Shown here: in pieces, positions 17,151-46,348 of the stretch
Layout of the letters: the number at the start of each line of letters is the position of its first letter
Position numbering within the stretch: the stretch's first letter is position 1
From: a virus
Lineage: Duplodnaviria > Heunggongvirae > Uroviricota > Caudoviricetes
DNA length: 64,000 nt
IMG/VR virus record: IMGVR_UViG_3300035703_000003
Strand: one strand, 5' to 3'
Notes under the pieces: generated by a model
Seen by the model: the letters and a program-made list of their open reading frames with translations, nothing else
Told to the model about the DNA's origin: nothing
The model's database searches: none
Translations under genes and position numbers: made by a program

Positions 17151-17178
17151 ACTATAGCAGAACCAGCTATAATGTCAA
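17151..17178 (-). promoter_or_regulatory. Sigma70-type early promoter
   Basis: TTGACA-16-TATAGT upstream of the VWA gene. Confidence 0.65.
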
Positions 17179-17630: not shown

Positions 17631-17656
17631 AGTATTGTCTCCTTTGCTACAGTTAT

Positions 17657-17684
17657 ATAATAGCAAATCTAGAACCTATGTCAA
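17657..17684 (-). promoter_or_regulatory. Sigma70-type early promoter
   Basis: TTGACA-16-TATTAT. Confidence 0.6.
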
Positions 17685-17992: not shown

Positions 17993-18006
17993 ACATATAC
18001 TTATAT

Positions 18007-18034
18007 GAATACAGGGCCCGAAGGCCCTGTATTC
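18007..18034 (-). terminator. Stem-loop with C(UUCG)G tetraloop, probable terminator
   Basis: GAATACAGGGCC-TTCG-GGCCCTGTATTC, a perfect 12 bp stem just after the MoxR stop. Confidence 0.75.
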
Positions 18035-18052
18035 TTCCCCAGGAGTGGCGTG

Positions 18053-26845: not shown

Positions 26846-27214
26846 TTATGATTGGTTGTGATATGCATCTACACGATAAATTTTATCATTACGGATACTT
26901 AAAACATCAATAACGCTAAAGTTTAGATTTGCACTTTCGCTTTTAATAATAATATGGCAGTATGCACGATTTGCATGACTTGTACCGATATCAATCACTG
27001 TTGCATTAATATCTGGCACATCTTTCCAAATATTTTCGTTTGCAATTAGAACAGCATCGACACCTGTTGCCTTTGTATTCCAGTCAACTAATTTTACGTC
27101 GGGATCAAATAGATCAAATAATTTTTTACTTGACTGTAAATTCCATGCTTCGAAGTATTGATGTGCAATAGTATGTATGTCAGAGTTAATCATTACCATC
27201 CAATCCTTTCCCAC
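26846..27214 (-). CDS. NTF2/SnoaL-like protein
   Basis: YFEAWN...LF..DV...DW...G...VIDV....KI. Confidence 0.7.
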   Translation of the reverse strand: MGKDWMVMINSDIHTIAHQYFEAWNLQSSKKLFDLFDPDVKLVDWNTKATGVDAVLIANENIWKDVPDINATVIDIGTSHANRAYCHIIIKSESANLNFSVIDVLSIRNDKIYRVDAYHNQS

Positions 27215-28290
27215 GGAACATTTTTATCACCAAAATGACCATAAACGCAATTTTTACTATAATCATAAAAATTAAATAAATCAAAACGATCAATGATACC
27301 TTTTGGACTTAGATCAATCTCGTTGCGAATAAAACGTTCGATTGAACGATTATGGCCGTTACTATCGATTAGAATACTGGTCGGTTGTTTAACACCAATA
27401 GCATATGATAGCTGAATGTTGCACCAATCTGCCATTTCATCTGCTACTACGTTTTTAGCAAGCCAACGTGCCATATATGCAGCACTACGATCTACTTTTG
27501 TTGGATCTTTGCCGCTAAATGCGCCGCCGCCGTGCGGAGCAAAACCGCCATACGTATCTACGATAATTTTACGCCCTGTAACACCAGCATCGCCATCGGG
27601 GCCGCCAATTACAAAGTTACCTGTAGGATTAAGATGCCATACTGTATTTTCGTCAATCAAATCTCCCAATACATTGTGTGCAGCTTTTTTTGCTAGTTCA
27701 CGTGCTTCGTCGATGCTGCCTTCGGTGTGTTGTGTGCTAATAACAATTTGGTCAATTCGTTTAATGATGCCTTCTCTTCTGGCGCCATTGTATTCAACAC
27801 TTACTTGCGATTTTGCATCGGGGCCCAATACAGTATTATTTTTTCTAAATTGCTCGAGTTCTTGTAAAATTTTATGAGAAAAATGAATTGGTGCTGGCAT
27901 ATAACTGCTGGTATGATTACACGCATAGCCAAACATAATGCCTTGGTCACCCGCACCGAAACTATCTGTGCCTAATGCAATATCTGCACTTTGCGAGTGT
28001 ATTTTATTGTAAATGTTTAATTTATTCCAGTGAAAGCCGTCTTGTTCGTAACCAATATCTTTAACAACATTACGAACTATATTGTCTATTTCTTCTGTAG
28101 ACACATTGAAATTTTTCACTTCGCCTGCAAGTGTAACATGATTTGTAGTTACAAGTGTTTCGATTGCAACACGAGTAGTCTGATCTCCTGCGGTAAGACC
28201 AGCATCAACAAGTGCATCAGAAATCTGATCTGCAACTTTATCAGGGTGTCCTTTACTTACACTTTCACTAGTGAAAATATAATTAGCCAT
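27193..28290 (-). CDS. metK: S-adenosylmethionine synthetase
   Basis: FTSESVSKGHPDK, GAGDQG, GRKIIVDTYGG, GGAFSGKDPTKVDRS. Confidence 0.97.
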   Translation of the reverse strand: MANYIFTSESVSKGHPDKVADQISDALVDAGLTAGDQTTRVAIETLVTTNHVTLAGEVKNFNVSTEEIDNIVRNVVKDIGYEQDGFHWNKLNIYNKIHSQSADIALGTDSFGAGDQGIMFGYACNHTSSYMPAPIHFSHKILQELEQFRKNNTVLGPDAKSQVSVEYNGARREGIIKRIDQIVISTQHTEGSIDEARELAKKAAHNVLGDLIDENTVWHLNPTGNFVIGGPDGDAGVTGRKIIVDTYGGFAPHGGGAFSGKDPTKVDRSAAYMARWLAKNVVADEMADWCNIQLSYAIGVKQPTSILIDSNGHNRSIERFIRNEIDLSPKGIIDRFDLFNFYDYSKNCVYGHFGDKNVPWERIGW

Positions 28291-28620: not shown

Positions 28621-29517
28621 TCAAGTTCCCCAGGCATTTCCGAATAAGGTAATGTGGAGTCTTGGGGTAAATCGGTATCCTTTCGCCATAGCAATTTTTG
28701 CAACTTGCTGAACGGTGAGGTTATACCCTTCAGTGCGACCGCCCACGGGCATAAGGTAAACAGGGCATTCAACGCCCGCTGTACGATATTCTGCAACAGC
28801 CTTATCAACTTCCTCCACATCCACGTTATCAGCCACAACAAACTTAAGATAAAGTTCAGTGCCAGCGATATCGTGGTACTGACGAGCAACGCTAGGCTTA
28901 ATAGCATCAGTCCAAGACTCTCCCGAAACGGATAGTTTTGGACTACAACTAAACGTTGTTTTAAATCTTGCACGAGTTCCGAGGTATTCTCTAAACTCAT
29001 CATGCAACCACTGTGTAGTATTTGTTTCAAATGTAACATTTTTTAAGTCTCGCATTTTTGGATGCTCAAACAACTCAATATACAGTCGTTGCCATGCTAG
29101 TAATGGTTCACCGCCCGTCATAATAAGATGAACATCTTGTCCGTTATCTTGTGTCCATTTACCGTTCGGAGTCAAACTAAGCAGATGATCTACTACTTCG
29201 TCGATGGTTTTATCCATGACCAAGTGTCTAAATTCTGGATAGATACTTGCATAAGTATCACAGCCAGAAAACACTAGCGGCAAGTCCTCGAACTTCTCTG
29301 TAGTTTCGTGAACTTTATTTTCGATTAGCTTTTCAACTTCTGGATTATAACGTGTTTTAGGACGACCACGTTCTAGTCCAAAGTTTTGACAACGAAAGTT
29401 ACAACCAAACGTGCGTAAAAACACACTTGGAACACCTACGTATTTACCTTCGCCTTGAATGCTATAAAACGCTTCACTATAGCGTAGTTTTAGTTTGTTT
29501 GTTTCTTCAATGTCCAA
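28621..29517 (-). CDS. queE: 7-carboxy-7-deazaguanine synthase (radical SAM)
   Basis: FYSIQGEG, FLRTFGCNFRC...GCDT, TGGEP, FETN, SPKL, PRLH. Confidence 0.92.
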   Translation of the reverse strand: MDIEETNKLKLRYSEAFYSIQGEGKYVGVPSVFLRTFGCNFRCQNFGLERGRPKTRYNPEVEKLIENKVHETTEKFEDLPLVFSGCDTYASIYPEFRHLVMDKTIDEVVDHLLSLTPNGKWTQDNGQDVHLIMTGGEPLLAWQRLYIELFEHPKMRDLKNVTFETNTTQWLHDEFREYLGTRARFKTTFSCSPKLSVSGESWTDAIKPSVARQYHDIAGTELYLKFVVADNVDVEEVDKAVAEYRTAGVECPVYLMPVGGRTEGYNLTVQQVAKIAMAKGYRFTPRLHITLFGNAWGT

Positions 29518-31791: not shown

Positions 31792-32334
31792 TTAATTTGA
31801 TTCGTAAGGATAAACTAGCCAGATGTTTTCTTCTGCTTTATTGCATTCGTCCCAATAGTAATCGATTTGATCAAAGTCACTTGACCAGTTTTGTGTCATT
31901 ACAGCAAAACGAACGTTTTTGCCCCAGACTGTATTCCAAGATTCTTCATTCGGGAGGCAACTTGAATTCCAGTCTTTTTTAATCCAATTGAACGTAGCAC
32001 CAGTGTCGTTAATGTCGTCTACAATTAGGATCTTTTTTCTAATGTTAGGATCCCATCTACTTTTAAATGTTTCTTGGTCATCGACTAAACCAAATGCATC
32101 ATCTGCCATCCAGCAGTTAGTTTCGCATTCTTCACCTGCAACACCATCTCGTAGTTTTACTTTTAGTGTTTCCATTCTGCAGTTAAGTTTGTGACTCAAC
32201 AATATTGCCAATGGCAAACCGCCACGGGTAATACCTACAATGTAATCTGGCCGCCAGTTGTCTCTATACATTTGAAAAATAATAGAATTTGCTGCACGGT
32301 CAACATCATCCCATGTGTAATATTTCTTTTTCAT
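31792..32334 (-). CDS. Purine phosphoribosyltransferase (Gpt-like, type I PRTase)
   Basis: GITRGGL, LIVDDINDTGAT, WLVYPYE. Confidence 0.88.
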   Translation of the reverse strand: MKKKYYTWDDVDRAANSIIFQMYRDNWRPDYIVGITRGGLPLAILLSHKLNCRMETLKVKLRDGVAGEECETNCWMADDAFGLVDDQETFKSRWDPNIRKKILIVDDINDTGATFNWIKKDWNSSCLPNEESWNTVWGKNVRFAVMTQNWSSDFDQIDYYWDECNKAEENIWLVYPYESN

Positions 32335-33711: not shown

Positions 33712-33736
33712 AAAAAAGCGCCAGTTAAGGCGCTTT
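33712..33736 (-). terminator. Rho-independent terminator
   Basis: AAAGCGCC-ttaact-GGCGCTTT followed by a T run on the minus strand, after the folE operon. Confidence 0.75.
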
Positions 33737-33754: not shown

Positions 33755-34051
33755 TTAGTTACCTTGCAACGCTTGCTCAACAACAATGTTTTTAACAGCA
33801 TCTCCGAGGTCTTCGCTATCACTTATTACATATAGCGATGTTCTTGAATTATCAGTTTTGCGATCATATTTGTGATACTGAACAACTCGTCCGCCACGTG
33901 CAGGAAAGACACGTAAAGTGTAACAATCTGCGTCGATATCTTCCATCGAAGAACCCTTACGACCACCTACCGATTGAACAAGAACACCTCCTCGCTCTTC
34001 GTCTCTGGCGTCGTTGACCCATTTAACTATAAGTTTCTTTAAAAATTTCAT
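33755..34051 (-). CDS. Hypothetical phage protein
   Basis: A.GG.VV...YD.KTD....LYVI motif; coupled to folE. Confidence 0.65.
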   Translation of the reverse strand: MKFLKKLIVKWVNDARDEERGGVLVQSVGGRKGSSMEDIDADCYTLRVFPARGGRVVQYHKYDRKTDNSRTSLYVISDSEDLGDAVKNIVVEQALQGN

Positions 34052-34731
34052 TTTGTAAATTCCTGTTGTAGCTTGATATTATCCATAAATTCTTTTTTGG
34101 TGCCCATATCGTCTTTGAATGCCCCTTTAAGCACTGTAGTTTGTGTCAATGAGCTATGTGCCATAATGCCCCTATTCTCACAACATCCATGCGTCGCCTG
34201 TATATAAACACCTACATCTTTACTGCCGGTTGCTTTGCTAATCTCACGAGCAATATCCATTGCAAGTTCTTCTTGTAGTGTGCCACGTCGAGCGCACCAC
34301 TGTGCAATACGTGTATACTTGCTTAGACCAATTAGTGTATCTGCAGCAATAATACCAATATATGCAACACCTTTAACTGGCTGGTGATGATGCGAACACA
34401 TGCTAATGATTTCACTACGAACTACTAACATGCCAGTATATGGTTCGTCTGTGTGATTAGGAAATGCTGTAGCATTTGGCATTGGATAGTAGCGACCAGA
34501 CATAAGTTCTTTAACATACATCTTAGCTAGTCTGCGTCCTGTTTCCATACTGTTAGGATCGTTTTTACGATCAATAACAAGACTGTCGAGGACATCTTCG
34601 AACTTATCAGTTAGTTCGTCAATTAGTTCATCTAGTTCACCCTCTTTGACGAACTTGCTGATATTGTCACCTGCCCAATATCTGCTGCCAGCTTCTTCAA
34701 TACGCTGTTTAATTTTTTTACTTGTTTTCAT
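34048..34731 (-). CDS. folE: GTP cyclohydrolase I
   Basis: SMCSHHHQP, GLSKY.RI, LQEEL, HGCCENRG. Confidence 0.95.
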   Translation of the reverse strand: MKTSKKIKQRIEEAGSRYWAGDNISKFVKEGELDELIDELTDKFEDVLDSLVIDRKNDPNSMETGRRLAKMYVKELMSGRYYPMPNATAFPNHTDEPYTGMLVVRSEIISMCSHHHQPVKGVAYIGIIAADTLIGLSKYTRIAQWCARRGTLQEELAMDIAREISKATGSKDVGVYIQATHGCCENRGIMAHSSLTQTTVLKGAFKDDMGTKKEFMDNIKLQQEFTK

Positions 34732-34765
34732 TTTCTGCTCCTAGTTATAGACGGCGAGACGTCTT

Positions 34766-35860
34766 TTACATATTATCTTTAATAGTATCGTATAATTTAG
34801 CACCACTAAAGAAATTTGTCGATAGTTTTTCGACATTTGTATTTAGGTAATTGTGGTAGTTTTTATGCTTTTCCACATACTTCTTTAGTTGGTCTGCTAC
34901 CTTGTGCTTGTTTGCTTGATAGCTATCCCAATTTTCAGTCCACTCACTAGGATACTTAAACACATCGTCATACATTTCACTGTATGACAAACGATCGGGC
35001 ACCATTGGAATTGCATCGACTAGCATACCTTCATATGCACTAATGCCAAGTGTTTCTTGCAAGTTAGCACTAAACACAACCTTTGCTTCGCCTAGTAGAT
35101 TATGATATTCAATTTTTGTTAGATCACGTTCCTGACAAACAATGAATTCATACTCGGGCAGTAGTGTTGCAAGATCCTTAAAGATGTCTAGTTGCTTTTC
35201 AGGAGCAAGCCTGTGAGGAAATAGAACGATATCCTTCTTTTCCATGTTCTTATACGGAGTAAGTGTTGCTTCCATATATTCCATTGGCCAGCCTACGACT
35301 TTGACATTGTCTTGCTGTAGGAACCATTCAACTGGGGTCATACCAAACATGCTTTTAAATTGCAGCAAGTTTTCTGCAAAGATTTTAGCATGGAATTCTG
35401 TAGCAAAGAAGTTGTCATCATATGTAAAGAACATACTTTTCTCTGCATGACGAACCCAAGGTTTATCGCCAACAAGACGTCCTAGGAAATCTGCGGGATC
35501 ATAAGAGCCGGCATGCCATAGACCGCCAATCTTAATCTTTACTCCTAGCAGTTCTGCCATGTAACGTAGTTGAATAACGGTAGGGTTCCAAGCATCTGTG
35601 TAAAGGAAGTAGTCTCCGTCCTTTACTGTGCCTTTGCAAAACATTTCACCGATCTGCATAAGCTGATTTGATTTGTAAACGTTAGTGCCACCAAAGTTAA
35701 GGAAAGCCCCAGGCGTTGTAGCCTGAGGCGTTTCCCCACCGGAGATTACCACAACATCAGTGTCGGGTAAATGGTTCTTTAGTTGCACCGGTAGATGCGA
35801 CTTCCACTGTTTAGTGTAACGTGTATCTACTGCTTCGATGTCAACGATAAAGATTGTCAT
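34766..35860 (-). CDS. GT-B glycosyltransferase
   Basis: WHAGSYD, FPHRLAPEK, QETLGIS.YEG (ExFG-like), PDRLSYSE. Confidence 0.8.
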   Translation of the reverse strand: MTIFIVDIEAVDTRYTKQWKSHLPVQLKNHLPDTDVVVISGGETPQATTPGAFLNFGGTNVYKSNQLMQIGEMFCKGTVKDGDYFLYTDAWNPTVIQLRYMAELLGVKIKIGGLWHAGSYDPADFLGRLVGDKPWVRHAEKSMFFTYDDNFFATEFHAKIFAENLLQFKSMFGMTPVEWFLQQDNVKVVGWPMEYMEATLTPYKNMEKKDIVLFPHRLAPEKQLDIFKDLATLLPEYEFIVCQERDLTKIEYHNLLGEAKVVFSANLQETLGISAYEGMLVDAIPMVPDRLSYSEMYDDVFKYPSEWTENWDSYQANKHKVADQLKKYVEKHKNYHNYLNTNVEKLSTNFFSGAKLYDTIKDNM

Positions 35861-36192
35861 ACTGCTTTATTCACCCATGGTGCTTGAAACACACCGACGT
35901 GAATTTTTAGCTTTTTAGCACTGCGGTCTGCAGCCATTTTAACTGCGACATCATATGTAATTGCAGTGTCACGGATAGTGCTAAGAATAGTGTAGTCTTG
36001 AATTTTATCTTCGATTTGCAAATCCTTTAGATAAGCACTAAACAGATTGCGAATTTTGCTTTCGCTAGTAGGCTTCTGATCAAGAATACCATCATATGGT
36101 TCGATGATCTTAATAAGATCATACTTGATGTCGTTAATGCTTACACGGGTTTGGTCGAATTTATTCATAGCTGCACGATGCTCCATTTTCAT
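35857..36192 (-). CDS. Hypothetical protein
   Basis: Coupled ORF between the DpdL-like and glycosyltransferase genes; start uncertain. Confidence 0.55.
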   Translation of the reverse strand: MKMEHRAAMNKFDQTRVSINDIKYDLIKIIEPYDGILDQKPTSESKIRNLFSAYLKDLQIEDKIQDYTILSTIRDTAITYDVAVKMAADRSAKKLKIHVGVFQAPWVNKAV

Positions 36193-36538
36193 TGTCTTCA
36201 CTTACTTTGATGTTGAGTTTACGGTTAGGATATTTAGAGTTGATAATTTCTGCGAGTTCATCACAAATCATTTCGCAGGACTTGTAATCGAGTTGCAAAG
36301 TTCCGTTTGCATAGAGACTTTCCAGCCATCTCTTGAATTGGATAAATTCAATGTCTCGATCGTTGTGGAACACTTCAATTTCAATTTTGAAGTGGAAAAT
36401 ATGACGATGTGGATAGCCTAAAAAGCTAACGTCATATTCGTCACCAGTAGCCAGACCAGGATCTGTTAGTGCTGCTGGATATTTGTGGATACCTTCTTTC
36501 TGAAAGGTAACCCAAATGCTGTTTGCAGTTTTGTTCAT
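36161..36538 (-). CDS. dpdL: QueD-like T-fold protein with DpdL-type motif (putative 7-carboxy-7-deazaguanine decarboxylase)
   Basis: LGYPHRHIF (LxxxHRHxF) replaces the QueD CxxxHGH motif; SCE and VSED T-fold motifs. Confidence 0.7.
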   Translation of the reverse strand: MNKTANSIWVTFQKEGIHKYPAALTDPGLATGDEYDVSFLGYPHRHIFHFKIEIEVFHNDRDIEFIQFKRWLESLYANGTLQLDYKSCEMICDELAEIINSKYPNRKLNIKVSEDNENGASCSYE

Positions 36539-36539
36539 A

Positions 36540-36716
36540 TTACTCGTCGTCGTCGGATTCTGTAACTACAGAAAGTTTCTTTTCTAGGCGCTGCATAGTT
36601 TGTAGCAGTTCCCACATTTTCCAGTCCATTGCTTTTGCAAGTTCTAGAATTGTTTTGTTGAAGTCTTCTGGCACGTGCTCTTCGACTTCATCAATTACTC
36701 GAATCTTTTTAACCAT
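36540..36716 (-). CDS. Small hypothetical protein (58 aa, not in track)
   Basis: Hand translation MVKKIRVIDE...MDWKMWE...; GGAG RBS. Confidence 0.55.
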   Translation of the reverse strand: MVKKIRVIDEVEEHVPEDFNKTILELAKAMDWKMWELLQTMQRLEKKLSVVTESDDDE

Positions 36717-36891
36717 TGTGTTCTCCGGTGATGTTTTGTTCGATTTTCGTTAGTTCTTGTTTAACTTGTAGTTTCTGTTTTTTCAACACAGTAATTTCAT
36801 TGTCTGTATTGTTATGTTTATACAACTCGTTAATACGATTGTCAAGTTCTTTATGTTTAGTTTGTAGGCTTTTTATTCGATCTTGGAGCAT
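36709..36891 (-). CDS. YdcH/DUF465-like protein
   Basis: L..KH.ELD..I...LKKQKL..K.EL. Confidence 0.7.
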   Translation of the reverse strand: MLQDRIKSLQTKHKELDNRINELYKHNNTDNEITVLKKQKLQVKQELTKIEQNITGEHNG

Positions 36892-37312
36892 TTTCTACCC
36901 TTTCTCTCAAATCAGATGTGCTAAATCTGTGGTCACGCTTGTTAAAATACAAGTCGATGCCACGCTTGTTACAAATGTCCTTGCCAGTAAAATCTTTGTC
37001 TTTGTATTCTTCTCCTAGAATTCGGATATCGATTTCATACATATTTAGAATGTCTTTGAGATCTTGTTCTGTTTGATACGGAATAATTTCGTCAACATAC
37101 TTTACAGCCGCAAGTTGTGCATAACGTTCAACTAGTGTTTGTACAGGCTTATTTTTAGTATCTGCCCTGTCTAGAGTAGGGTCTGTTTGAATGCCAGCGA
37201 TAAGATAATCGCAGTGGTTTTTAGCTTCACGCAACATTGCCACATGACCTGCATGAAGCAAATCAAATGTGCTAAATGTAATACCAACTATTCTTTGACT
37301 TCTTTTTTTCAT
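36857..37312 (-). CDS. Cytidylyltransferase (TagD/glycerol-3-phosphate CTase-like)
   Basis: TFDLLHAGH, YVDEII, R.H.FSTS. Confidence 0.88.
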   Translation of the reverse strand: MKKRSQRIVGITFSTFDLLHAGHVAMLREAKNHCDYLIAGIQTDPTLDRADTKNKPVQTLVERYAQLAAVKYVDEIIPYQTEQDLKDILNMYEIDIRILGEEYKDKDFTGKDICNKRGIDLYFNKRDHRFSTSDLRERVENAPRSNKKPTN

Positions 37313-38436
37313 ATAGTTACAACCTCTAACGGAGGAAACCCATTAAATGCAACCGAACTGTATGTTGTTGTATATGCTCCGCAGTTCAACACAATAAATC
37401 TGTCACCTGATGCCAAGTCAGTTGGCAGCTCTACTTTGTTTTTCTCGTAAAGCACATCGGCACTATCACATGTAGGGCCAGCTAAAATACATGGTGCAGT
37501 ATCGTTAGCATCAGTATCTGGAGTTAAAAACTGATACTTAATAGCTTCTTGTTCTGTTTCTGCAAGTCCGTGAAACTTACCAATATTCAGATATACCCAA
37601 CGAACTGGATCATCATCATGCTTACGACTTACAAGCAATACTTCTGCAGCAATTGCACCGGCATTTCCTACTAGTCCACGCCCTGGTTCTGCCATAATGT
37701 ATTCTACATCACCGAATCGTTCTTTAACTGCATCGATGATGCTAGATCCATACTCTTCTGGCTCGGTAATGTCAACACCGTAGTATGCAGGAAAGCCACC
37801 ACCAATGTTTAACAGTGTAAGGTTAAATCCTTCTTCCTTTGCATTATTCCAAATGCCACTTACAAAATCCAAGATGTCATACCACATATGGGGATGTCTA
37901 GTTTGACTACCTACGTGAAAGCTAACACCGACTGGCTCTAGTCCTGCTTCTTTTGCAGTATGCATTAGTGGAATAACCATACTGCTACTACAACCGAATT
38001 TGCGACTTAGTGGCCATTCTGCTTCTGTGCTGCGAATAAGAATACGAATGAATACTTTACTGCCAGGTGCATATTTTGCAACTTTTTGTATTTCTTCTTC
38101 AGCATCGACTGAGAATAGTGTAATGCCTTTTTCGTGTGCAGAAACAACATCTTGCCAGCGTTTTACAGTATTGCCAAAACTAATGTGTTCAGGTTTTGCA
38201 CCTGCTTTCAAACACATATCAATTTCACCAATACTAGCTGCATCGAATCTACAGCCTAGTTTGACTAGTTTTTTTAAAATTTTAGGATGCGGGTTTGCTT
38301 TAACTGCATAATGAATATGAGCTTCTGGCATACCTGCTTTAAGCCGAACATAGTTTTCTTCTACTTGATCTACATCTAATACAAGTGTAGGACGTTCGAA
38401 TTCTTTTTTGTTAATGTGTTTAATGATCTTATTCAA
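37309..38436 (-). CDS. Type III PLP ornithine/lysine decarboxylase
   Basis: YAVKAN, FDAAS, KFG, SFHVGSQ, NIGGGF, EPGR, GPTCDS, GAY. Confidence 0.92.
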   Translation of the reverse strand: MNKIIKHINKKEFERPTLVLDVDQVEENYVRLKAGMPEAHIHYAVKANPHPKILKKLVKLGCRFDAASIGEIDMCLKAGAKPEHISFGNTVKRWQDVVSAHEKGITLFSVDAEEEIQKVAKYAPGSKVFIRILIRSTEAEWPLSRKFGCSSSMVIPLMHTAKEAGLEPVGVSFHVGSQTRHPHMWYDILDFVSGIWNNAKEEGFNLTLLNIGGGFPAYYGVDITEPEEYGSSIIDAVKERFGDVEYIMAEPGRGLVGNAGAIAAEVLLVSRKHDDDPVRWVYLNIGKFHGLAETEQEAIKYQFLTPDTDANDTAPCILAGPTCDSADVLYEKNKVELPTDLASGDRFIVLNCGAYTTTYSSVAFNGFPPLEVVTI

Positions 38437-38941
38437 TTACAGTGTCTCCTACGTAATCATCCCAATCAGTATAAACTTTGCGTTGTTGTAGTTGATGCAA
38501 GCTATGACACCACACACCTTGGTTACTGTGACCCCATGTAGTATCGTCTAGTTTAAGTGTAGCATTATAATTGAAATGCCTAATGTATGGCAACTTAACA
38601 CTAATCATACTGATAAAGGTGTTATACTCGTCGTATCCGGATTCTAGCACACCTTCTGCATATTTAACATCAAAGTCTAAGGTGCACCAATAACCTTCTT
38701 TTAGTAGAGGTTTAATCATATCTTCCCATGCCAAATATGCGCCAGGATGTTCGGGATTAAAACTTTGGCTTGTGCCAAAATATAGATGTTTAATATTATG
38801 TGCATCAGCCCGTTGCTTGATTTCTTCCCACGGTTCGATGCCAACTACGAACAATGTTTTTTGATTATACATTGCAGTGTGTTCAACTTCTGTGCCGATA
38901 AAATACACTACGTCTTGACGTTCTTCTGTGTTTAATCCCAT
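38429..38941 (-). CDS. Hypothetical protein in the modification operon
   Basis: Intact and coupled; G.EVEHT, TLFVVG, N.GVWCH. Confidence 0.7.
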   Translation of the reverse strand: MGLNTEERQDVVYFIGTEVEHTAMYNQKTLFVVGIEPWEEIKQRADAHNIKHLYFGTSQSFNPEHPGAYLAWEDMIKPLLKEGYWCTLDFDVKYAEGVLESGYDEYNTFISMISVKLPYIRHFNYNATLKLDDTTWGHSNQGVWCHSLHQLQQRKVYTDWDDYVGDTVIE

Positions 38942-39846
38942 TTGATATAACCTCTATTATAGCCTGCCAGACGATTCACTGCATCAGCAAAGGCTTGTTT
39001 CCATTCTGTGTTTCTATTATAGCCACAAGTCCACGTATTGTCTACATTTAATTTACCAGACTCGATGTGTGTTACTGCTAGTTTCATCGACGGTAAGAAC
39101 TTCTCGCTTCTCGGACTAGGGAAACACATAGTAACATTTTTCCAAAGCCAATTACCAAACGTAGTTGTATAAGCAGATAGTTTTTCTGCAGCCATAATAA
39201 TCAATGCGTTTTCGGCAACATTTGCTTGTTGTAGTGTGTTATGTTCACTTAGGTCAATGATAACATCATATTCACAATCTGCAGGCTTGTGTAGCAACAA
39301 ATGCCAATACTTGATGTTACTGCTACCTACAACATCTATATCAAAGTGTAAATCTAAGTTTGATAGTGTTTGATGAACTACTTTAGCTAGAAAGCCTGTG
39401 CCAATAATGCATAGCCGTCCGCCATCACGTTTTTTAAATTCGTCTAAACTGTTTAAAATAATATTAACACCACATGCAACTGGTTCGATAATGTATTTAG
39501 GATCTAATTCTGGAACAGTTACATATGTTCCTTTCCTTGCAACATAATAGTCTGCATACGCAGGTTCACCACGTGTAGCTACATACTCGCCTGTTGCAAC
39601 ATTAATACCCAGACCTTCGTGACCATGCATACTTGCAGGTAACAGTTGAAAGTCACCTTGCATCATTGCAATGTCACTACGACACACACCTGTCATTGCT
39701 GCTTTGACAAGTATATCGCCGTCGTTTATTTCTGGTATAACATATGTGCTTTCGTAAAAAGCACCATTACCATCCGTTACTAATGCTCGGACAGTGCTTC
39801 CAACTGTTGGTGAATCCATAAATCCATATCCTTTTGTTGTTGCCAA
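38932..39846 (-). CDS. Zn-dependent (MDR) alcohol/polyol dehydrogenase-like protein
   Basis: GVCRSD, GHEG.G, EPVAC, IIGTG. True start may be near 39819. Confidence 0.8.
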   Translation of the reverse strand: MATTKGYGFMDSPTVGSTVRALVTDGNGAFYESTYVIPEINDGDILVKAAMTGVCRSDIAMMQGDFQLLPASMHGHEGLGINVATGEYVATRGEPAYADYYVARKGTYVTVPELDPKYIIEPVACGVNIILNSLDEFKKRDGGRLCIIGTGFLAKVVHQTLSNLDLHFDIDVVGSSNIKYWHLLLHKPADCEYDVIIDLSEHNTLQQANVAENALIIMAAEKLSAYTTTFGNWLWKNVTMCFPSPRSEKFLPSMKLAVTHIESGKLNVDNTWTCGYNRNTEWKQAFADAVNRLAGYNRGYIKWD

Positions 39847-40643
39847 AACTCTTCGTTATTTTCGTTATCAAGTGCAGTTTGAATCATAGATTGATATGCT
39901 TCTTCTGGACATAGACCTAGTTCAAATGTTTTGTCATCTACGTGTATTGCGATATCATCGCCATTCATACTGCGCCAGTCTGCAACACAATTGTATTTTT
40001 CATTATATTGCAACATGCAGTAGTCGTCAACGTTATAAATTCCTTTTGGATCTACTTCGCCATAACCGCTATCGGCAACACTATCTAGGGTCCATCTTTG
40101 CTCTAGTTTACGATCAGTAACAGTGCTATCTTTCCAATCAGGATTTAGCATTTGATATAAACTTAGCATGTGTGGCATCAAGTCTCTGCTTACTCCACCA
40201 AATGCAGAATGTTTTGCAGTAAACCAACTACCTGGCTTTGGTATTCTATTATTGTTAATCCAATGAAAATTAATAACAGATGCATCGGTAGCTGCATCTT
40301 GCATTTCTTTGATGTTGCTACGATATTGATTGTTTTTAGTCATCATAATCCTAGTTTTAGAATTATCCTTTAGCAAATCTTCCCAATGGGACGATGTTGC
40401 TACACCAGGTTTTTCTACAAACACAAACTTAGATACTTTTGCTGCCTTGTCTGACAATACGTAATGTGAATAGTTTGGGGTGCAAATATGAACAGTATCG
40501 TATCTATCTTTGACGTCGTCAAAAGTTTTATAGTTTGCTTCTTTGTTGAATGGGTCAAGATATTCAATACCCCAACCCATATTTTTGTATATATTTCCGT
40601 ATAGAACTTTACCAAAGCCCATACCTACAATAAGTGTTTTCAT
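39780..40643 (-). CDS. Gfo/Idh/MocA NAD(P)-dependent oxidoreductase
   Basis: VGMGFG, ICTPN..H, VEKP, GGVSRDLMPH. Confidence 0.85.
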   Translation of the reverse strand: MKTLIVGMGFGKVLYGNIYKNMGWGIEYLDPFNKEANYKTFDDVKDRYDTVHICTPNYSHYVLSDKAAKVSKFVFVEKPGVATSSHWEDLLKDNSKTRIMMTKNNQYRSNIKEMQDAATDASVINFHWINNNRIPKPGSWFTAKHSAFGGVSRDLMPHMLSLYQMLNPDWKDSTVTDRKLEQRWTLDSVADSGYGEVDPKGIYNVDDYCMLQYNEKYNCVADWRSMNGDDIAIHVDDKTFELGLCPEEAYQSMIQTALDNENNEEFWQQQKDMDLWIHQQLEALSEH

Positions 40644-40646
40644 TTC

Positions 40647-42116
40647 TTACTCAAATAATGCGTTAAATTGTGCGCTACTGTTGACAGTTTTCTTACCAAC
40701 AGCACCTCTAGTTCCAACAACTTTCATCCATAGACGTTCGTGACTATCTACAAATGCTAGTGCTTCGTCACGATTCTCGAACTCAAAAGCTCGTGCAATA
40801 ACATCTTTAACTTCAGTTCTATCAAACTGTTCATCTACTAGCATGTTAGGATAAGTGCCGCCATCGTATGCACGATTTGCTGCTTGAACACTGTTAATAT
40901 GCGTATACACATTGTGATTCATCATAAGTGAATATGCAAAGCTATCCCAACTTGTTTTAGTTGACACACCCATACGATTTAAGTCTGTTGGATTATAGTG
41001 ACATATATCGTTAACTTTCAAACCATTAGTTATAGGTGTAGGCATCCAATCCGGATAAATTTTAGTTAGCAAGTCGTTATAAGGACTAGTATCAGTTGCT
41101 AAACCTTTGTCGTCTGGAGCATCGTTCATCATATAACTCCACTTGCCACCTTGCTCTAGACGATGACCTGTGTATACTTGACCATTAGCTGTGCATAAGA
41201 ATGGACTTGCACAATCGAATGTAATAGTAAAGTTTTCGTTATAGTTTTTACGAACTGCTCGCTGTATTGCAGTAAGCACCAATGCCCATTCTAGTTTACT
41301 TGTTCCGAGGAAGTGCATAAAGTCATGCACACCTTTTTCTAGCAAACCATCATGTATAAGTGTTATTACACGCTTAAGTGCAAGATGGATATCACACATA
41401 TTTTGTCCACCCATTGCCCAACCATTAAAGTGAGCATCTGGATATTTTTTAGGATCGCAATATTCCTTAACTTGACTATACCAGTCGTCTGCTTGTGCGA
41501 AGTTTTCGCCTTGCAATACGTTTAGGAATTTACAATTACCGTTACGATTTCTGATAAAGTAATCGTTATTAATACGTGTTCCATCAACAGCTTCTTGATA
41601 GCTGCTAATCTTACTTGCCTTAGCACCTTCCGGGCTACGGCTTACCCACGCAGGAATATCTAAGATCATACCATAGTCCATAAAGGCGTCCATCCATTCT
41701 AGAACGCCTTTACGCTTTTTCATTGCATTTGGGCAAGCAGGATCTTTCCAATCTCCTTCCCATACACCTTTACCAATTTGGAACCCTCCACTGTCTCCTA
41801 AGATCCAGCTAGTGTTTTTGTTTCGATCACGATACATGTCCTCACGAAACATATCTTTAGTAAGGTCTAGACTAGCATGACCTGCACTATGTAGACTCCA
41901 CTTGTATTGCCATAGGCCTTGAGGATCTAGCCAGTTTAGGCTTTCCACTCCGTTAGGCATACTTGCAGGGATTCGTGCAGGATCAATATATGGATTGCCT
42001 TCAATTAATCCACGACGCTGTCTCCCTACAAACAGCGCATAGAATGTGCTAAGTGCAGGGAGAAATATAGCGTAATCGTTTTGTGTTGAAGTTAAGTCAG
42101 TGTTTAGTTCATTCAT
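40647..42116 (-). CDS. dpdA: TGT-superfamily transglycosylase, DpdA-like
   Basis: GDSGGFQ, MILDIP, NVLQG, GWAMGG, HFLG, TFDCAS; same operon as folE and the DpdL-like gene. Confidence 0.75.
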   Translation of the reverse strand: MNELNTDLTSTQNDYAIFLPALSTFYALFVGRQRRGLIEGNPYIDPARIPASMPNGVESLNWLDPQGLWQYKWSLHSAGHASLDLTKDMFREDMYRDRNKNTSWILGDSGGFQIGKGVWEGDWKDPACPNAMKKRKGVLEWMDAFMDYGMILDIPAWVSRSPEGAKASKISSYQEAVDGTRINNDYFIRNRNGNCKFLNVLQGENFAQADDWYSQVKEYCDPKKYPDAHFNGWAMGGQNMCDIHLALKRVITLIHDGLLEKGVHDFMHFLGTSKLEWALVLTAIQRAVRKNYNENFTITFDCASPFLCTANGQVYTGHRLEQGGKWSYMMNDAPDDKGLATDTSPYNDLLTKIYPDWMPTPITNGLKVNDICHYNPTDLNRMGVSTKTSWDSFAYSLMMNHNVYTHINSVQAANRAYDGGTYPNMLVDEQFDRTEVKDVIARAFEFENRDEALAFVDSHERLWMKVVGTRGAVGKKTVNSSAQFNALFE

Positions 42117-42118
42117 TA

Positions 42119-42850
42119 TTATTTGCTTTGAGCAGGTAGGATATATTCGTATACCGCAAGACCGTTATCTACGGTAATCATAGCTGCACCCATATCGCTA
42201 AACTGCATAGTGATATTTCCACTTAGTGATAGAATGCTCAATACTTCAACAATCGGATATTTCCATCCTTGCTTTAGTTCACCTGTAACGCTAGCTTGGA
42301 ATACAAAGTTACCAGTGTGACCGCTGTCGTCGCCGAAGTAAAACTTAAGATCACTACCTTCAGTCTTAGCAACGAATACAACTTCTTCACCGTTAGCTTG
42401 TGACTGGAATTTGAAGCGTTGTGTGCTAGCACTGCTTGGCTCTAGTGTAACATTCCAGTTTGCACCTTTAAAGCGAACACTTGCTAGTTTTTCTTCCATT
42501 AGTTCTTTTTGCATAAAGCGGAAGTCGTTCTTAAAGTCGCCTGTTGCATTTTCAAAGTGCATACCGAATGGTTCTTTTTCACCATTACGATCACGAGTAG
42601 TGACAGAGATCTTAGCATTTTCTTTGTATTCCGGAATGTTAAGAATAACGTTTAGTTTACTAAGATTAGGAAGACCAAATGTTCCTTCTAGACCTGGAAT
42701 TGGCTTTTTGTATCTTGCACGGACAACAACCTTATTGTCGTCATCCTTTGCTTCGACTGTAGTTGTTTCATCATTTGTGATTACTTTAACTGCTTCAATA
42801 TTGCTAACACCTTTTGTGTGTTTAACGATATCAAGTAGATAGTCTCTCAT
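42119..42850 (-). CDS. DNA sliding clamp-like protein (gp45-like)
   Basis: 243 aa, near the polymerase, beta/alpha repeat character, C-terminal YILPA. Confidence 0.6.
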   Translation of the reverse strand: MRDYLLDIVKHTKGVSNIEAVKVITNDETTTVEAKDDDNKVVVRARYKKPIPGLEGTFGLPNLSKLNVILNIPEYKENAKISVTTRDRNGEKEPFGMHFENATGDFKNDFRFMQKELMEEKLASVRFKGANWNVTLEPSSASTQRFKFQSQANGEEVVFVAKTEGSDLKFYFGDDSGHTGNFVFQASVTGELKQGWKYPIVEVLSILSLSGNITMQFSDMGAAMITVDNGLAVYEYILPAQSK

Positions 42851-43083
42851 GTGTTTGTCCTCTTTATAAGTTTAACTTTGTAGCTGCCTAGTGTGCGTTC
42901 TAATGTAAATTCACGCACCTTTGTATTTAGACGAAGCCATTCTTCGATTTCGTCTTTTATAGCGCCTTGTCCGCAAATAACTCTACAATATGTATAATTT
43001 CCATAATAACATTCATTTATGAAATTAGCAATCTTTTTCCATGCTTCATGTATATGAAAACCATGTAAATCTATAGTAGGCAT
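42847..43083 (-). CDS. Stand-alone Smr-domain protein
   Basis: IDLHG...A.....FI...VICGQG.IK....WL...GS. Confidence 0.8.
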   Translation of the reverse strand: MPTIDLHGFHIHEAWKKIANFINECYYGNYTYCRVICGQGAIKDEIEEWLRLNTKVREFTLERTLGSYKVKLIKRTNT

Positions 43084-43084
43084 C

Positions 43085-43633
43085 TTAGAAACGAATGTTG
43101 AACTGCGCTCTGCGGTTAATTCTCCAGCAACCTTCATTAGAATCAATGCATATCGGTCTTTCTTTGCCGTATGACAACACACCGATGCGATCAGCGACAA
43201 CACCGTTGTTTACTAAAATTTGCTTAACTGATTCTGCTCTGTCTTTGCCCAGACCTAAGTTATATTCTCTTGTTCCACGCTCGTCTGCATAACCTTCGAT
43301 AATTACTGTTGCACTTGCGTTCTTCTGCAAGAATTCAATGACTGGGGTTAAGTTAGCAACTTCTTCTGCTGATAGTGTATTGCTATTAGAGTCAAAGTAA
43401 ACTGCAAAATTGTTTAGATTTGCTGCTTCGACCATAGCACTAAGTTCGGCTACTTGCTGCTCTAACGTTTTGATTTGGGTTTGCAGATCGCCGTCGGTCT
43501 TAGACAATTGCGTAACAGCATCGGTAATCTGATCGTTTACATATGCTTTGATATCTTCTTGTGTTGTAGTTGTTTGTGCAGATGCTACTGATGCTCCTAG
43601 TAGTAGTGCTGCAATTATACTAAGTTTTTTCAT
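43085..43633 (-). CDS. Secreted coiled-coil plus Pal/OmpA-C peptidoglycan-binding protein
   Basis: Signal peptide; VYFD, IEGYADERGTREYNLGLG..RA, SYGKERP, NRRA. Confidence 0.88.
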   Translation of the reverse strand: MKKLSIIAALLLGASVASAQTTTTQEDIKAYVNDQITDAVTQLSKTDGDLQTQIKTLEQQVAELSAMVEAANLNNFAVYFDSNSNTLSAEEVANLTPVIEFLQKNASATVIIEGYADERGTREYNLGLGKDRAESVKQILVNNGVVADRIGVLSYGKERPICIDSNEGCWRINRRAQFNIRF

Positions 43634-43648: not shown

Positions 43649-46348
43649 TTATCCGAAGTCAAACAAACTTTCGAAAGTAGTTTTATCTTCAGCCTTACTT
43701 AAATCCCAGCCCATAACACCTAGCAAGTTTTCAATCTTTTGTGTAATGATGCCTTCTTCCATTTCGTCTATATCAAATGGTAGTTCTTTAAACCATTCAG
43801 CTAAACGACCTTCGTCGGTCGGATAACCTATGCTTGTAAATCCCATTGGATTTGCTTTTAGTTTACAAACAATAGTTTTCATACCGTCCATAATTTCAAT
43901 GCTATACTTGTCGCCGTTTAATCTACGCAAACGGTTATAGTTGATTGCTGCACGGACATGACCTGGCATGTTAAATTTGCCTTTGTAAATTTCATTGCCT
44001 GTATGCGGATCTGTCATAAACTCTTGGCTGTAGTAATAAGTTAACTTGTTAACACGCTTAGGAGTTCCTTTAAGCCACGGAGGCATTGCTCTGAACTCTT
44101 GACGGAAATCAATGATACGATCAATGATATCGCTTTCCTTTGTGCCAGTTAGTGTTTTGAGCAGTAACTCACTTAAGAAGTCTTGCATAAACGCAGGCGT
44201 GTCACTTCGCTTAAGATCGAGACCCATAGCTTTAATTTTACCAGGCTTATCGTTTTGATCTTCTCTGTGACCTTCCGAATCATATACAAGAATAGCGTAG
44301 CGTTTTTTAGTAATGAAAATGCCTGCACTAGCACATACTTCACGACCTGCAGCAATAATTTTGCCTTGGTCTGGATTTATTACATTGTGTGCAGTTCTCA
44401 TGTAATCAGGGAATGTTGTATTTGCTTCGTTTGATACTGTGTCATACAACTCAGTTACTTTTTCTTTATTCCATTCAAACTCGCCCGATTCAATTTGCTT
44501 TTTGAATACCGGATAAGCACTAAAGTATACAGAGTCAGTATCCCCGTATATAATAGAATCGCCCTTATGGTCATATGCTCCGGTAAACAATTCGTTTACT
44601 TTTGCTGCCATGTGTCGTGCAATACAACGTCCTGTAAGTGTTGTAGATTGACCTAATCGTCCGTCGTTAAATCTTGATCCAGGATTGAGAACAGCGCCGT
44701 ATAGTGAGTTAAGGTTAATCTTCTTAACTAGCTGTCGTTTGTCCCAAAATGCAAATTGTTCGTCGTCTACACCTTTGAACTCTTTTGCTTTTTTCTGCAA
44801 CTGTTTACGTTCGCTATACCAGCGTTCTAGCAGTCCAGGAATAATACCTTTACGATCTTGTGTAACAATTGTCCCGTTAGCTGTTAACACCCAATTTTGA
44901 TCTCCATTGAAGATAATGTCGTATATTTCTGCTCCGGTTGCAGGTAGTTCTTCGCCATTTTCAAAATCAATATACAATAAGACTTCGTTGTCTTTCTCCA
45001 TCACAAGTTCGTATTCAGGACAAGCAAATCTGCCTTCCCATGCTTTTGCAACTTCCCAGTCGTGTTCTTGTAACAGCTTAACAGTAAGTGTGTGCCGCAA
45101 TTGACCAACAATAGTTTCTGTTGACATGTTAGTGCTACGCAAGATACTAGGATACAGCGAGTTTAAGTCCATTGAACCAATCCACTCGTGATAACCTTTA
45201 ACAGGAGTAGCAACATACGCACCTGCTGCAGTTACCGCCTGTGGATAACCTTTTTGAACTTTGTTATGTTCCTTGTCGGGAACAATGTAGCCACGCTGGT
45301 GTGCTTCGTTTACAATTGCTTGGTCGGTAACCGCAACTGCACCCATCGTAGTTTGAATAAGAACCGTATTATCGTGTGCAATAACGTTAGCTAAGTCAAT
45401 GAACTGTAGCTTTTTGTCTAGCTTAACTAATAGTTCAACGTCTTGCCTGTTATAGTCAATAAACGTAAAGAAGTCGTTGTTGTATAGTTGATCTAGTGTG
45501 CCTTCGTATGCAATTTTACGTTCGTTAAGTTCGTATTCACCGATTGCATCTAATGAATAGCTGTGCATTTCATGATACGTATACTTGCGATACAGTTGCA
45601 TATAGTCCAAATGTATTCTGCCAAGTGTATCAAACGTTTCCTGCATTTTACCAAAACGCTCAAACTCTCTGCGCTTAGGATATTGATGCCATAAACAAAA
45701 ACGACGAGTATGCTCTTTACCAAGAACTCTTGCTACACGATTAACGATATATGGAATGTCGAAGCCTTCCGAGTTCCAGCCTGTTAAAACGTCTGCATCT
45801 TCGACTAAGTTAAGAAATGTATCTAGCAGTTCTTCTTCATTTTCCATTAGTAGAGTGTCGTCAAACTTTTCTACAATTGTTTGTGCGTCTGCTCTACTAA
45901 GTGTTTTTGGTTTGCATACAAGACATATAGTCTTTTTAATCCAGTTTAAATGAACAGCAATAGCAGTGATCGGATTAAATGGATCACTAGGATCAGCAAA
46001 GCCTTTATCTTTATCAAAGTCAACTTCAATGTCGAAAAACGCAATGTTTAGCTTTGGCGGTTCTTTGCCTAGATAGTTTTCTTCAAAACAACGAAAAACA
46101 GGATTAATGTCACTTTCGTATAGTTTCTGGCCGCTATATAGTTTCTTTTCTTTTTGAAATGCTTTGTTACTAGATGTGATAACACGATCTAGTTTTTCGC
46201 CAAAGATACTTTCAAATTTACCACGACTATCCTTGTAATAGAAAATATAACGGGCAGGGTATTCTCTATAATCCCTGCGACCGTTATTTCTTTCAACAAC
46301 ATGGATTATGTCACGATCCCTATCGAATAGGGCGTCCACATATGACAT
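43649..46348 (-). CDS. Family B DNA polymerase (gp43-like)
   Basis: Exo FDIE, GWN..GFD, YN..DV; Pol DLNSLYPS, K..LNSLYG, YGDTDS, KKRY. Confidence 0.97.
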   Translation of the reverse strand: MSYVDALFDRDRDIIHVVERNNGRRDYREYPARYIFYYKDSRGKFESIFGEKLDRVITSSNKAFQKEKKLYSGQKLYESDINPVFRCFEENYLGKEPPKLNIAFFDIEVDFDKDKGFADPSDPFNPITAIAVHLNWIKKTICLVCKPKTLSRADAQTIVEKFDDTLLMENEEELLDTFLNLVEDADVLTGWNSEGFDIPYIVNRVARVLGKEHTRRFCLWHQYPKRREFERFGKMQETFDTLGRIHLDYMQLYRKYTYHEMHSYSLDAIGEYELNERKIAYEGTLDQLYNNDFFTFIDYNRQDVELLVKLDKKLQFIDLANVIAHDNTVLIQTTMGAVAVTDQAIVNEAHQRGYIVPDKEHNKVQKGYPQAVTAAGAYVATPVKGYHEWIGSMDLNSLYPSILRSTNMSTETIVGQLRHTLTVKLLQEHDWEVAKAWEGRFACPEYELVMEKDNEVLLYIDFENGEELPATGAEIYDIIFNGDQNWVLTANGTIVTQDRKGIIPGLLERWYSERKQLQKKAKEFKGVDDEQFAFWDKRQLVKKINLNSLYGAVLNPGSRFNDGRLGQSTTLTGRCIARHMAAKVNELFTGAYDHKGDSIIYGDTDSVYFSAYPVFKKQIESGEFEWNKEKVTELYDTVSNEANTTFPDYMRTAHNVINPDQGKIIAAGREVCASAGIFITKKRYAILVYDSEGHREDQNDKPGKIKAMGLDLKRSDTPAFMQDFLSELLLKTLTGTKESDIIDRIIDFRQEFRAMPPWLKGTPKRVNKLTYYYSQEFMTDPHTGNEIYKGKFNMPGHVRAAINYNRLRRLNGDKYSIEIMDGMKTIVCKLKANPMGFTSIGYPTDEGRLAEWFKELPFDIDEMEEGIITQKIENLLGVMGWDLSKAEDKTTFESLFDFG

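Follow-up and report, generated by a model that had tools for sequence, protein, structure and literature searches.

A 64,000-nucleotide stretch of tailed-phage DNA (IMG/VR record IMGVR_UViG_3300035703_000003; this whole stretch is the window hereafter) carries a compact block of genes at positions 34048-42116 in which candidate sugar enzymes lie among dpdA, dpdL and folE. This arrangement raises the question of whether the phage places a sugar on a deazaguanine in its DNA and, if so, which genes of the block take part. An earlier note had read the block as a kit for an unusual activated sugar or polyol, giving a glycosylated or polyol- or amine-conjugated deazaguanine. One member of that kit, a GT4-type glycosyltransferase (GT; the transferase hereafter), accompanies DpdA, DpdL and a 170-amino-acid (aa) protein, in the order DpdA, 170-aa gene, DpdL, transferase, in 56/56 related loci that span PolB to the transferase. 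The best explanation, to which we assign a probability of roughly 0.55 as a whole, is that the window derives from a jumbo phage, as yet uncultured, with a genome of about 300 kb and that the block is a co-transcribed DNA-hypermodification module for a sugar-bearing deazaguanine. The earlier note could match the product to no known base, and we likewise found none described.

Organization of the locus

Every gene of the block lies on the minus strand, and neighboring genes overlap or are separated by gaps of 34 bases or fewer. Both the gene order given by the earlier note and the tight packing are true of 34048-42116, and its placement of the block right behind the polymerase and the clamp is equally accurate. 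From upstream to downstream, the features are as follows.

43649-46348, minus strand: PolB, upstream of the block
42119-42850, minus strand: clamp-like gene, 243 aa, directly upstream of DpdA
40647-42116, minus strand: DpdA-type DNA guanine transglycosylase, resembling tRNA-guanine transglycosylase (TGT), 489 aa, assigned by the motif LGDSGGFQ and context
39780-40643, minus strand: Gfo/Idh/MocA oxidoreductase (Gfo), glycoside-3-dehydrogenase-like, accessory (PF01408, 29.5 bits against a cut-off of 24)
38932-39846, minus strand: short zinc dehydrogenase of the medium-chain dehydrogenase/reductase (MDR) type, 304 aa, accessory, start codon uncertain (ADH_N, 27.6 bits against 23.5)
38429-38941, minus strand: core 170-aa protein without a known family, with a weak QueE-like half-barrel fold
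37309-38436, minus strand: fold-III pyridoxal phosphate (PLP) decarboxylase of the lysine/ornithine type (Pfam E 2e-51)
36857-37312, minus strand: HxGH nucleotidyltransferase, cytidylyltransferase-like, accessory (CTP_transf_like PF01467, E 3e-15, 57 bits against 21)
36709-36891, minus strand: DUF465-like small open reading frame (ORF) of 60 aa, conserved in close relatives only
36540-36716, minus strand: acidic small ORF of 58 aa, conserved within the nearest subclade
36161-36538, minus strand: DpdL, a QueD paralogue and proposed decarboxylase of 7-carboxy-7-deazaguanine (CDG), 125 aa, motif LGYPHRHIF
35857-36201, minus strand: ORF of 114 aa without assigned function, found in the nearest subclade only
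34766-35860, minus strand: GT4-type glycosyltransferase of the GT-B class, 364 aa, core (predicted fold and EX7E motif)
34048-34731, minus strand: GTP cyclohydrolase I FolE (PF01227, E 2e-38, and phrog_2197)
33755-34051, minus strand: small ORF of 98 aa, the last ORF ahead of a terminator-like hairpin
33715-33736, minus strand: terminator-like hairpin from a consensus scan only, the probable end of the transcription unit
28621-29517, minus strand: QueE (CDG synthase), whose cluster-binding loop has a long insert (NCBIfam QueE models, E 2e-11)

Linkage of the transferase to DpdA and DpdL

Relatives of DpdA in IMG/VR numbered at least 598, at 60-77% identity, and the window proteins were mapped onto 80 loci together with three that were reached from the Gfo side; the 56 spanning loci are drawn from this mapping. 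A megablast search of the region against cultured phages returned no match. The transferase adjoins DpdL and/or DpdA in the cultured phages PA5oct, ACP17, Phosso, X1 and BUCT-ZZ01, and the gene orders in cultured phages include the following.

PA5oct: DpdA-GT-DpdL, then QueE; a tight Gfo-MDR-170aa triad lies 26 kb away
ACP17: QueD-FolE-170aa-DpdA-GT-DpdL-QueE
Xanthomonas phage X1: GT-DpdA-DpdL-QueE
Phosso: clamp-x-DpdL-GT-x-FolE, with DpdA 170 kb away
phiST, in which 2'-deoxy-7-deazaguanosine (dDG) has been measured: DpdL, without the transferase

We found 25 further transferase loci in a scan of prokaryotes that took one genome per species. Eight look like phage contigs binned into metagenome-assembled genomes, and 17 are alphaproteobacterial, mostly on large chromosomal contigs. 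The transferase adjoins a DpdA-type gene at all of these bacterial loci (17/17), and DpdL lies within 10 kb at 9/17. Examples are the order QueD-GT-x-DpdA-DpdL-QueE (L129) and an integrase followed by YhhQ-like transporter-GT-DpdA (L119). These pairs of GT4 transferase and DpdA (L113-L129) occur in Pelagibacterium, Devosia, Sulfitobacter, Shimia, Roseobacter and others, each with unassigned proteins of 520-590 aa, and the loci could represent a variant bacterial dpd-like island serving self-marking or defence.

Taken together, these findings retain only part of the sugar kit proposed by the earlier note. Its transferase genuinely belongs with dpdA and dpdL as a core gene across the 56 relatives, the cultured phages and the 17 bacterial chromosomal loci, while the kit as a fixed set was not borne out, the redox pair co-occurring with dpdA and dpdL in only 29/56 loci.

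Properties of the transferase

The AlphaFold2 model of the transferase (pLDDT 88) adopts a two-Rossmann GT-B fold, for which the top Foldseek matches are the retaining GT4 enzymes BshA, MshA and PimA (E 1e-9, TM 0.62-0.68). GlgM is also among the matches, which range from E 1e-9 to 1e-7 and from TM 0.6 to 0.68. The score against Pfam Glycos_transf_1 was 16 bits, below the 26.4 cut-off, with the copy of one relative reaching 29.9 bits, and a profile search against solved structures gave no match. Across 27 relatives of the transferase, neither the two glutamates of the EX7E motif (E269-x7-E277) nor R217 and K222, the basic residues for binding the donor phosphate, vary, and the same motif and residues are conserved in the homologues of PA5oct, ACP17, Phosso and X1. 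Based on the modeled GT4 fold and these invariant residues, the transferase looks active. Prediction of a complex between the transferase and DpdL gave a score of 0.00, which is no verdict either way, and isoelectric points, considered as a hint of DNA binding, were uninformative because nearly all of the proteins here are acidic, PolB included.

With respect to the acceptor, the window ThyA passes the thymidylate synthase equivalog cut-off, making it canonical, and four large relatives possess either zero or one ThyA-family gene. A canonical ThyA, with no second copy in relatives, makes a hydroxymethyl-pyrimidine acceptor unlikely, and this candidate was ruled out on that basis.

Candidate genes for making and inserting a deazaguanine

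The 489-aa DpdA had no match in Pfam (including the TGT model PF01702), PHROG or NCBIfam, and a profile of 26 sequences had none among solved PDB structures; in a related ESM-Atlas cluster, PF01702 is present in 17% of the members. Three elements are invariant among 26 DpdA relatives, namely D108 (within LGDSGGFQ), H268-F-L-G271 and D301, and comparison with ACP17 gp123, X1, PA5oct, Vibrio phage 2.275.O and phiST DpdA3 found D108, G110, Q/G202-203, H268-L-G271 and D301 to be invariant. We take D108, HxLG and D301 to be equivalent to the catalytic residues of TGT. The X1 homologue is annotated 'queuine tRNA-ribosyltransferase'. Homologues that are 31-35% identical lie directly behind PolB and the clamp in PA5oct (near QueE) and Vibrio phage 2.275.O (near QueF/QueC/FolE), and DpdA-type genes adjoin genes for 7-deazaguanine precursors, these being FolE in the operon and QueD, QueE or a YhhQ-like transporter in bacteria. 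Alignment of the DpdA profile with the 259-aa phiST DpdA3 by hhalign produced no meaningful match, so that the protein is not assignable to a DpdA subfamily.

The DpdL motif LGYPHRHIF conforms exactly to the LxxxHRHxF signature that DpdL bears in place of the QueD motif CxxxHGH (PMC10516641), and H44, R45, H46 and F48 are invariant in 27 DpdL sequences. The window DpdL is 37% identical to phiST CGPG_00067 (E 2e-8) and 58% identical to ACP17 DpdL (E 1e-39), and it matches phrog_17812 (E 1e-34).

FolE and QueE are both encoded in the window, QueE lying 4.5 kb downstream of the block. Neither QueD nor QueC was found within the 64,000 nucleotides; among the large relatives, QueD is present in 4/4 and a weak QueC-like PP-loop gene in 3/4. 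These divergent QueC-like proteins (about 31-32 bits to PF06508) are encoded far from the module (L090:15456-16136; G001:C1:110990-111187). The window QueE has a Cx3C motif, an insert of ~42 residues and then a third cysteine in GCDT. This layout is common to the QueE proteins of PA5oct, X1, Vibrio phage 2.275.O and phiST, those of ACP17 and Phosso having the usual Cx3Cx2C. Directly downstream of QueE is a gene for the SAM synthetase MetK (27193-28290, minus strand), ~92% identical over the part covered in the loci of the closest relatives.

The 170-aa protein has homologues in ACP17 (gp122, 30%) and PA5oct (46%). Its AlphaFold2 model (pLDDT 90) matched nothing in the PDB at E<=0.001 with Foldseek. 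An exhaustive structural search (VIA) placed three QueE structures in the top eight (Z 6.0-6.5), and QueE clusters were the first named matches in the ESM Atlas (TM 0.59). No Fe-S cysteines are present in the protein. Likeness at this level (Z 6.0-6.5, TM 0.59) is weak and below what would prove kinship, and we treat the modeled QueE resemblance as a lead rather than a family assignment.

Sugar accessory genes

The two redox enzymes form a cassette. The Gfo/MDR pair is present in 29/56 spanning loci at a fixed site between DpdA and the 170-aa gene, MDR co-occurring with Gfo in 29/29 loci as well as in PA5oct, and a quick DpdA tree indicated at least 5 gains or losses of the pair. All sampled members of the Gfo family (3/3) stood in a DpdA-module context. 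In Gfo, E77-K78-P79 (EKP) and D154 and H158 (DxxxH) are invariant in 20 sequences, and its closest solved relative is DgpA (7xr9, E 3e-12), a C-glycoside 3-oxidoreductase that oxidizes C3 of the sugar in C-glycosides; next for the Gfo profile were glucuronide 3-dehydrogenase and levoglucosan dehydrogenase. The MDR zinc ligands C55, H76 and E77 are invariant, and only the N-terminal part of the protein matches solved alcohol and threonine dehydrogenases. Since Gfo is nearest to glycoside 3-dehydrogenases, oxidation at C3 followed by reduction by MDR is a reasonable guess. In a 308-kb relative, a SulP-family (Sulfate_transp) gene lies between Gfo and MDR (L102:7876-9048).

The nucleotidyltransferase bears the motif LHAGH and scores below the equivalog cut-offs of the RfaE domain II and TagD models, its best solved relatives being ethanolamine-phosphate cytidylyltransferase and TagD. 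It is present in 19/56 loci, where its position varies: between the 170-aa gene and DpdL in the window subclade, and between PolB and the clamp in others. In 8 loci, the order is PolB-nucleotidyltransferase-phosphomannomutase-SDR-clamp (SDR, short-chain dehydrogenase/reductase). The fillers of this PolB-clamp slot include the following.

SDR NDP-sugar epimerase/dehydratase: 14/56 loci
UDP-glucose/GDP-mannose dehydrogenase family protein: 9/56 loci
Phosphomannomutase: 8/56 loci

In the window itself, two genes at 42847-43633 (minus strand) fill the slot from PolB to the clamp-like gene: one encodes an OmpA-family protein whose N-terminus resembles a signal peptide, the other an Smr-domain protein. 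In relatives, the slot holds sugar-nucleotide genes.

The order nucleotidyltransferase-phosphomannomutase-SDR is that of the textbook three-step route to a modified nucleotide-sugar, which argues that the nucleotidyltransferase activates a sugar-1-phosphate. It is a probable activator of a sugar-1-phosphate or phospho-alcohol. Synthesis of a CDP-polyol, to which the matches to TagD and ethanolamine-phosphate cytidylyltransferase would point, is a minor option since relatives pair the nucleotidyltransferase with phosphomannomutase and SDR. The polyol put forward by the earlier note is for the same reason less likely than a hexose-type sugar, the gene adjoining those for phosphomannomutase and an NDP-sugar epimerase/dehydratase in relatives. 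The redox pair and the nucleotidyltransferase thus behave like sugar-supply or tailoring accessories exchanged among lineages, which keeps that much of the original proposal; they are optional, with the redox genes in 29/56 loci and the nucleotidyltransferase changing place. At least one sugar accessory gene is found inside the block in 46/56 loci. Because relatives swap donor genes (phosphomannomutase, SDR epimerase/dehydratase, UDP-sugar dehydrogenase), the sugar probably differs among lineages.

Proposed pathway and its alternatives

The gene identities, motifs, folds and co-occurrence described above are observations, and they support the presence of a sugar kit. From them we infer the chemistry that follows, in which each step, the attachment of the sugar to deazaguanine and the choice of acceptor atom are all conditional. 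FolE in the operon, QueD encoded outside the window and the downstream QueE would together produce CDG. DpdL, probably aided by the 170-aa protein with its QueE-like fold, would then convert CDG, the proposed reaction being decarboxylation to 7-deazaguanine. The TGT-like DpdA would exchange guanine in DNA for the modified base. Using a nucleotide-sugar as donor, the GT4-type transferase would glycosylate the base, either prior to its insertion or once it is in DNA. The nucleotidyltransferase would make the activated donor, and the Gfo/MDR pair would tailor the sugar by C3 oxidation and then reduction, yielding an epimer or a keto sugar. One route to the linkage would be a C-glycosidic bond at the electron-rich pyrrole C7 that decarboxylation frees, which would explain the tie to DpdL.

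Several published results bear on this pathway. Four newer deazaguanine bases have been described along with DpdL, DpdM and DpdN, and expression of dpdL together with dpdA from phiST and ACP17 in Escherichia coli gave no dDG, with the suggestion that other enzymes are possibly needed (PMC10516641). This failure fits missing partners, and the pathway would account for it by the omission of the transferase and the 170-aa protein. PA5oct DNA withstands restriction enzymes whose sites contain G and is attacked by nucleases sensing hypermodified DNA, in a study that did not identify the base (PMC12191111). The literature that we searched contained nothing on a glycosylated deazaguanine in DNA.

A number of points weigh against a sugar-bearing deazaguanine. 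The 7-deazaguanine proposed as the DpdL product would have no C7 hydroxyl or amine for ordinary O- or N-glycosylation, and phiST makes dDG without the transferase. The CDG decarboxylase activity is only proposed, even for the prototype DpdL of phiST (PMC10516641), and if the weak QueC-like gene of large relatives is active, the pathway may go beyond CDG and the inserted base may not be 7-deazaguanine. The 489-aa protein is of the DpdA type by motifs and context, not by family match or fold. No accessory sugar gene is present in 10/56 loci, and these phages would need host donors. DpdL was not found within 10 kb in 8/17 bacterial loci. The 56 loci are metagenomic fragments of one phage clade, a weak point, outside of which there are a handful of cultured phages and the bacterial loci. 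Finally, the sugar-bearing base of the transferase-carrying phages is predicted from genes.

The alternative that survives best is that the transferase helps to make or deliver the base while leaving no sugar in the final DNA, acting through a transient glycosyl intermediate or as a non-catalytic partner, and that the base is dDG or another known deazaguanine. The absence of an obvious acceptor group in dDG is in keeping with this view, as is the plausibility of biosynthetic helpers given the failure of dpdA and dpdL alone in E. coli; moreover, the link between transferase and DpdA persists in bacterial loci without DpdL, one of which has a YhhQ-like precursor transporter. However, the production of dDG by phiST cuts against this alternative too, since phiST does so without the transferase. 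Likewise, the variable phosphomannomutase, SDR, UDP-glucose dehydrogenase (UGDH) and Gfo/MDR genes in 46/56 loci are ill-suited to a transient sugar, and the intact EX7E points to true glycosyl transfer. We therefore consider this alternative unlikely, though it deserves more weight than those that follow.

Somewhat less likely still is that the transferase and sugar genes work on targets other than DNA (the host envelope, proteins of the phage or a small metabolite), and that their place here solely reflects a conserved block of early or replication genes. The nearest solved transferases do act on small molecules or lipids, and the block also holds unrelated genes (OmpA-like, Smr, Rv2179c-like exonuclease and decarboxylase). 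Against this, linkage to DpdA/DpdL survives rearrangement among phages whose PolB proteins are only 25-28% identical, and it recurs in bacterial chromosomes without phage replication genes nearby, as in L129. The Phosso transferase stays beside DpdL even though DpdA is 170 kb off.

A sugar-bearing deazaguanine thus remains our preferred explanation. In its most general form, these phages and certain alphaproteobacterial islands would glycosylate a 7-deazaguanine in DNA, giving the first glycosylated purine-type DNA base, with lineages varying the sugar by way of phosphomannomutase, nucleotidyltransferase, SDR, UGDH and Gfo/MDR, the last acting at the glycoside level, in a manner resembling the diversification of O-antigen loci. 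We advance this broader proposal tentatively, at a little under even odds.

The decarboxylase

The decarboxylase is intact, possessing both domains, the PLP lysine (YAVKAN) and the GGGFP, EPGR and CDS motifs. It scored 177 bits against the LysA equivalog, below the cut-off of 298, and its closest solved relatives are the lysine/ornithine decarboxylases 2plj and 5gjm and the arginine decarboxylase of the chlorovirus PBCV-1. Many relatives at 70-99% identity are found on jumbo-phage-sized contigs. None of the 80 IMG/VR loci has the decarboxylase within 10 kb of DpdA (0/80); the arrangement seen in the window is found only in two near-identical contigs (L088, L089), and in a 374-kb relative and Phosso the gene is far from the module. 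An ancestral synteny of the decarboxylase with QueC and QueD was considered and dropped, as it held in the one 374-kb contig and failed in Phosso. Contrary to the earlier note, then, the block does not include the decarboxylase as a conserved component, and we interpret this gene as a polyamine gene acquired by the operon in this lineage alone.

Given its lysine/ornithine type and its location elsewhere in relatives, the amine-conjugated base suggested by the earlier note has little backing. It is quite improbable that the enzyme yields putrescine or cadaverine for joining to the CDG carboxyl as a polyamine-amide deazaguanine, for although the gene overlaps its operon neighbors in this lineage and lies 4-9 kb from the QueC-like PP-loop gene and QueD in the 374-kb relative, it is absent from within 10 kb of DpdA in the IMG/VR relatives, in Phosso is separated from DpdL by 120 kb and has no neighboring Que genes, has no amide-forming ligase beside it in the window operon, and would more simply supply polyamine for DNA packaging.

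Comparison with known systems

The closest characterized system is that of phiST, in which DpdL and DpdA3 are associated with dDG (Cui, Hutinet et al., NAR 2023, PMC10516641). It shares FolE, QueE, a DpdL with LxxxHRHxF (37% identity), a divergent TGT-like gene beside polymerase genes and the lack of QueC in the locus. In contrast to the window, phiST lacks homologues of the transferase and the 170-aa protein as well as of the Gfo/MDR pair and the nucleotidyltransferase, and its 259-aa DpdA3 has no profile match to the 489-aa family. Its dDG product was measured, whereas the window system is known from genes alone.

Behind PolB and a clamp-like gene, the Pseudomonas jumbo phage PA5oct (Wroclawvirus) encodes consecutively DpdA (35%), the transferase (EST35_0317, 49%) and DpdL (61%); QueE is close to them, and the phage also has the triad of Gfo (EST35_0362, 31%), MDR (32%) and 170-aa protein (EST35_0364, 46%). 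Guanine in its DNA is experimentally modified, as judged by restriction resistance and targeting by END nuclease. It differs in that the triad is 26 kb from DpdA-GT-DpdL and the block contains neither nucleotidyltransferase nor decarboxylase. Its MDR (EST35_0363; PA5oct 250869-253146, L100:5870-8147) has Ser and Cys at the positions of the Cys and His zinc ligands of the window enzyme; lacking these ligands, it may differ in chemistry.

Addition of the sugar of a nucleotide-sugar to a modified DNA base by a GT-B enzyme would be shared with the T-even glucosyl- and arabinosyl-hydroxymethylcytosine systems and with base J, the sugar again varying by lineage. In those systems, a thymidylate-synthase homologue makes the acceptor, a hydroxymethyl pyrimidine, and no such enzyme is present here. 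The T4 enzymes, moreover, are not GT4-type, and none was among the top 50 fold matches of the window transferase.

Mannosyl- and galactosyl-queuosine in eukaryotic tRNA provide a precedent for a sugar on a 7-deazaguanine derivative in nucleic acid, and the mannosyltransferase for mannosyl-queuosine is reportedly GT4-like. There the acceptor is the queuosine cyclopentenediol in tRNA; the window has no queuosine-completing genes, and the target here would be DNA. The bacterial dpd cluster (DpdA/DpdB/DpdC, giving dPreQ0 and dADG) likewise uses a TGT-like DpdA to insert a 7-deazaguanine, its genes residing on genomic islands. No homologue of DpdB or DpdC was seen here, and the alphaproteobacterial loci pair another DpdA type with the GT4 transferase.

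To our knowledge, all known 7-deazaguanine DNA bases carry small groups at C7, and there is no report of a purine analogue with a sugar in DNA. If the proposed pathway is true, its product would be a new class of hypermodified base. Variation of the sugar would be readable from gene content, and would bear on how phage DNA evades restriction enzymes, nucleases that sense modifications and antiviral glycosylases. The prediction is testable in the cultured phages PA5oct, ACP17, Phosso and X1. Such bases affect how environmental phage DNA can be sequenced and cloned, and the enzymes are possible tools for site-specific DNA glycosylation. What the window adds is the Gfo/MDR pair as a recurrent, position-fixed cassette that in PA5oct makes up a triad together with the 170-aa gene, the tie of the nucleotidyltransferase to the phosphomannomutase-SDR route and the status of the decarboxylase as a passenger.

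Other genes of the region

Downstream of the block are genes for a purine-type phosphoribosyltransferase, thymidine kinase, QueE and MetK. The phosphoribosyltransferase (31792-32334, minus strand) is closest to xanthine phosphoribosyltransferase (E 2e-8) and is kept between the transferase and FolE/QueE in 43/80 related loci. It could turn the deazaguanine base into a nucleotide, which would open a pre-replicative route; conversion of a base to a nucleotide by a phosphoribosyltransferase occurs in tubercidin biosynthesis.

A 132-aa gene of the HhH-GPD (DNA glycosylase) superfamily, absent from the window, is found inside the PolB-to-FolE block in 10/56 relatives (L025:7870-8268 and nine others). 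Elsewhere in the window, at 11070-13942 and 15935-19153 (both minus strand), are genes for a 2-oxoglutarate-oxygenase-like protein of the Asp/Asn hydroxylase family, a fatty-acid-desaturase-like protein, the canonical ThyA, a DUF2201 metallopeptidase/VWA protein and a MoxR-like AAA ATPase.

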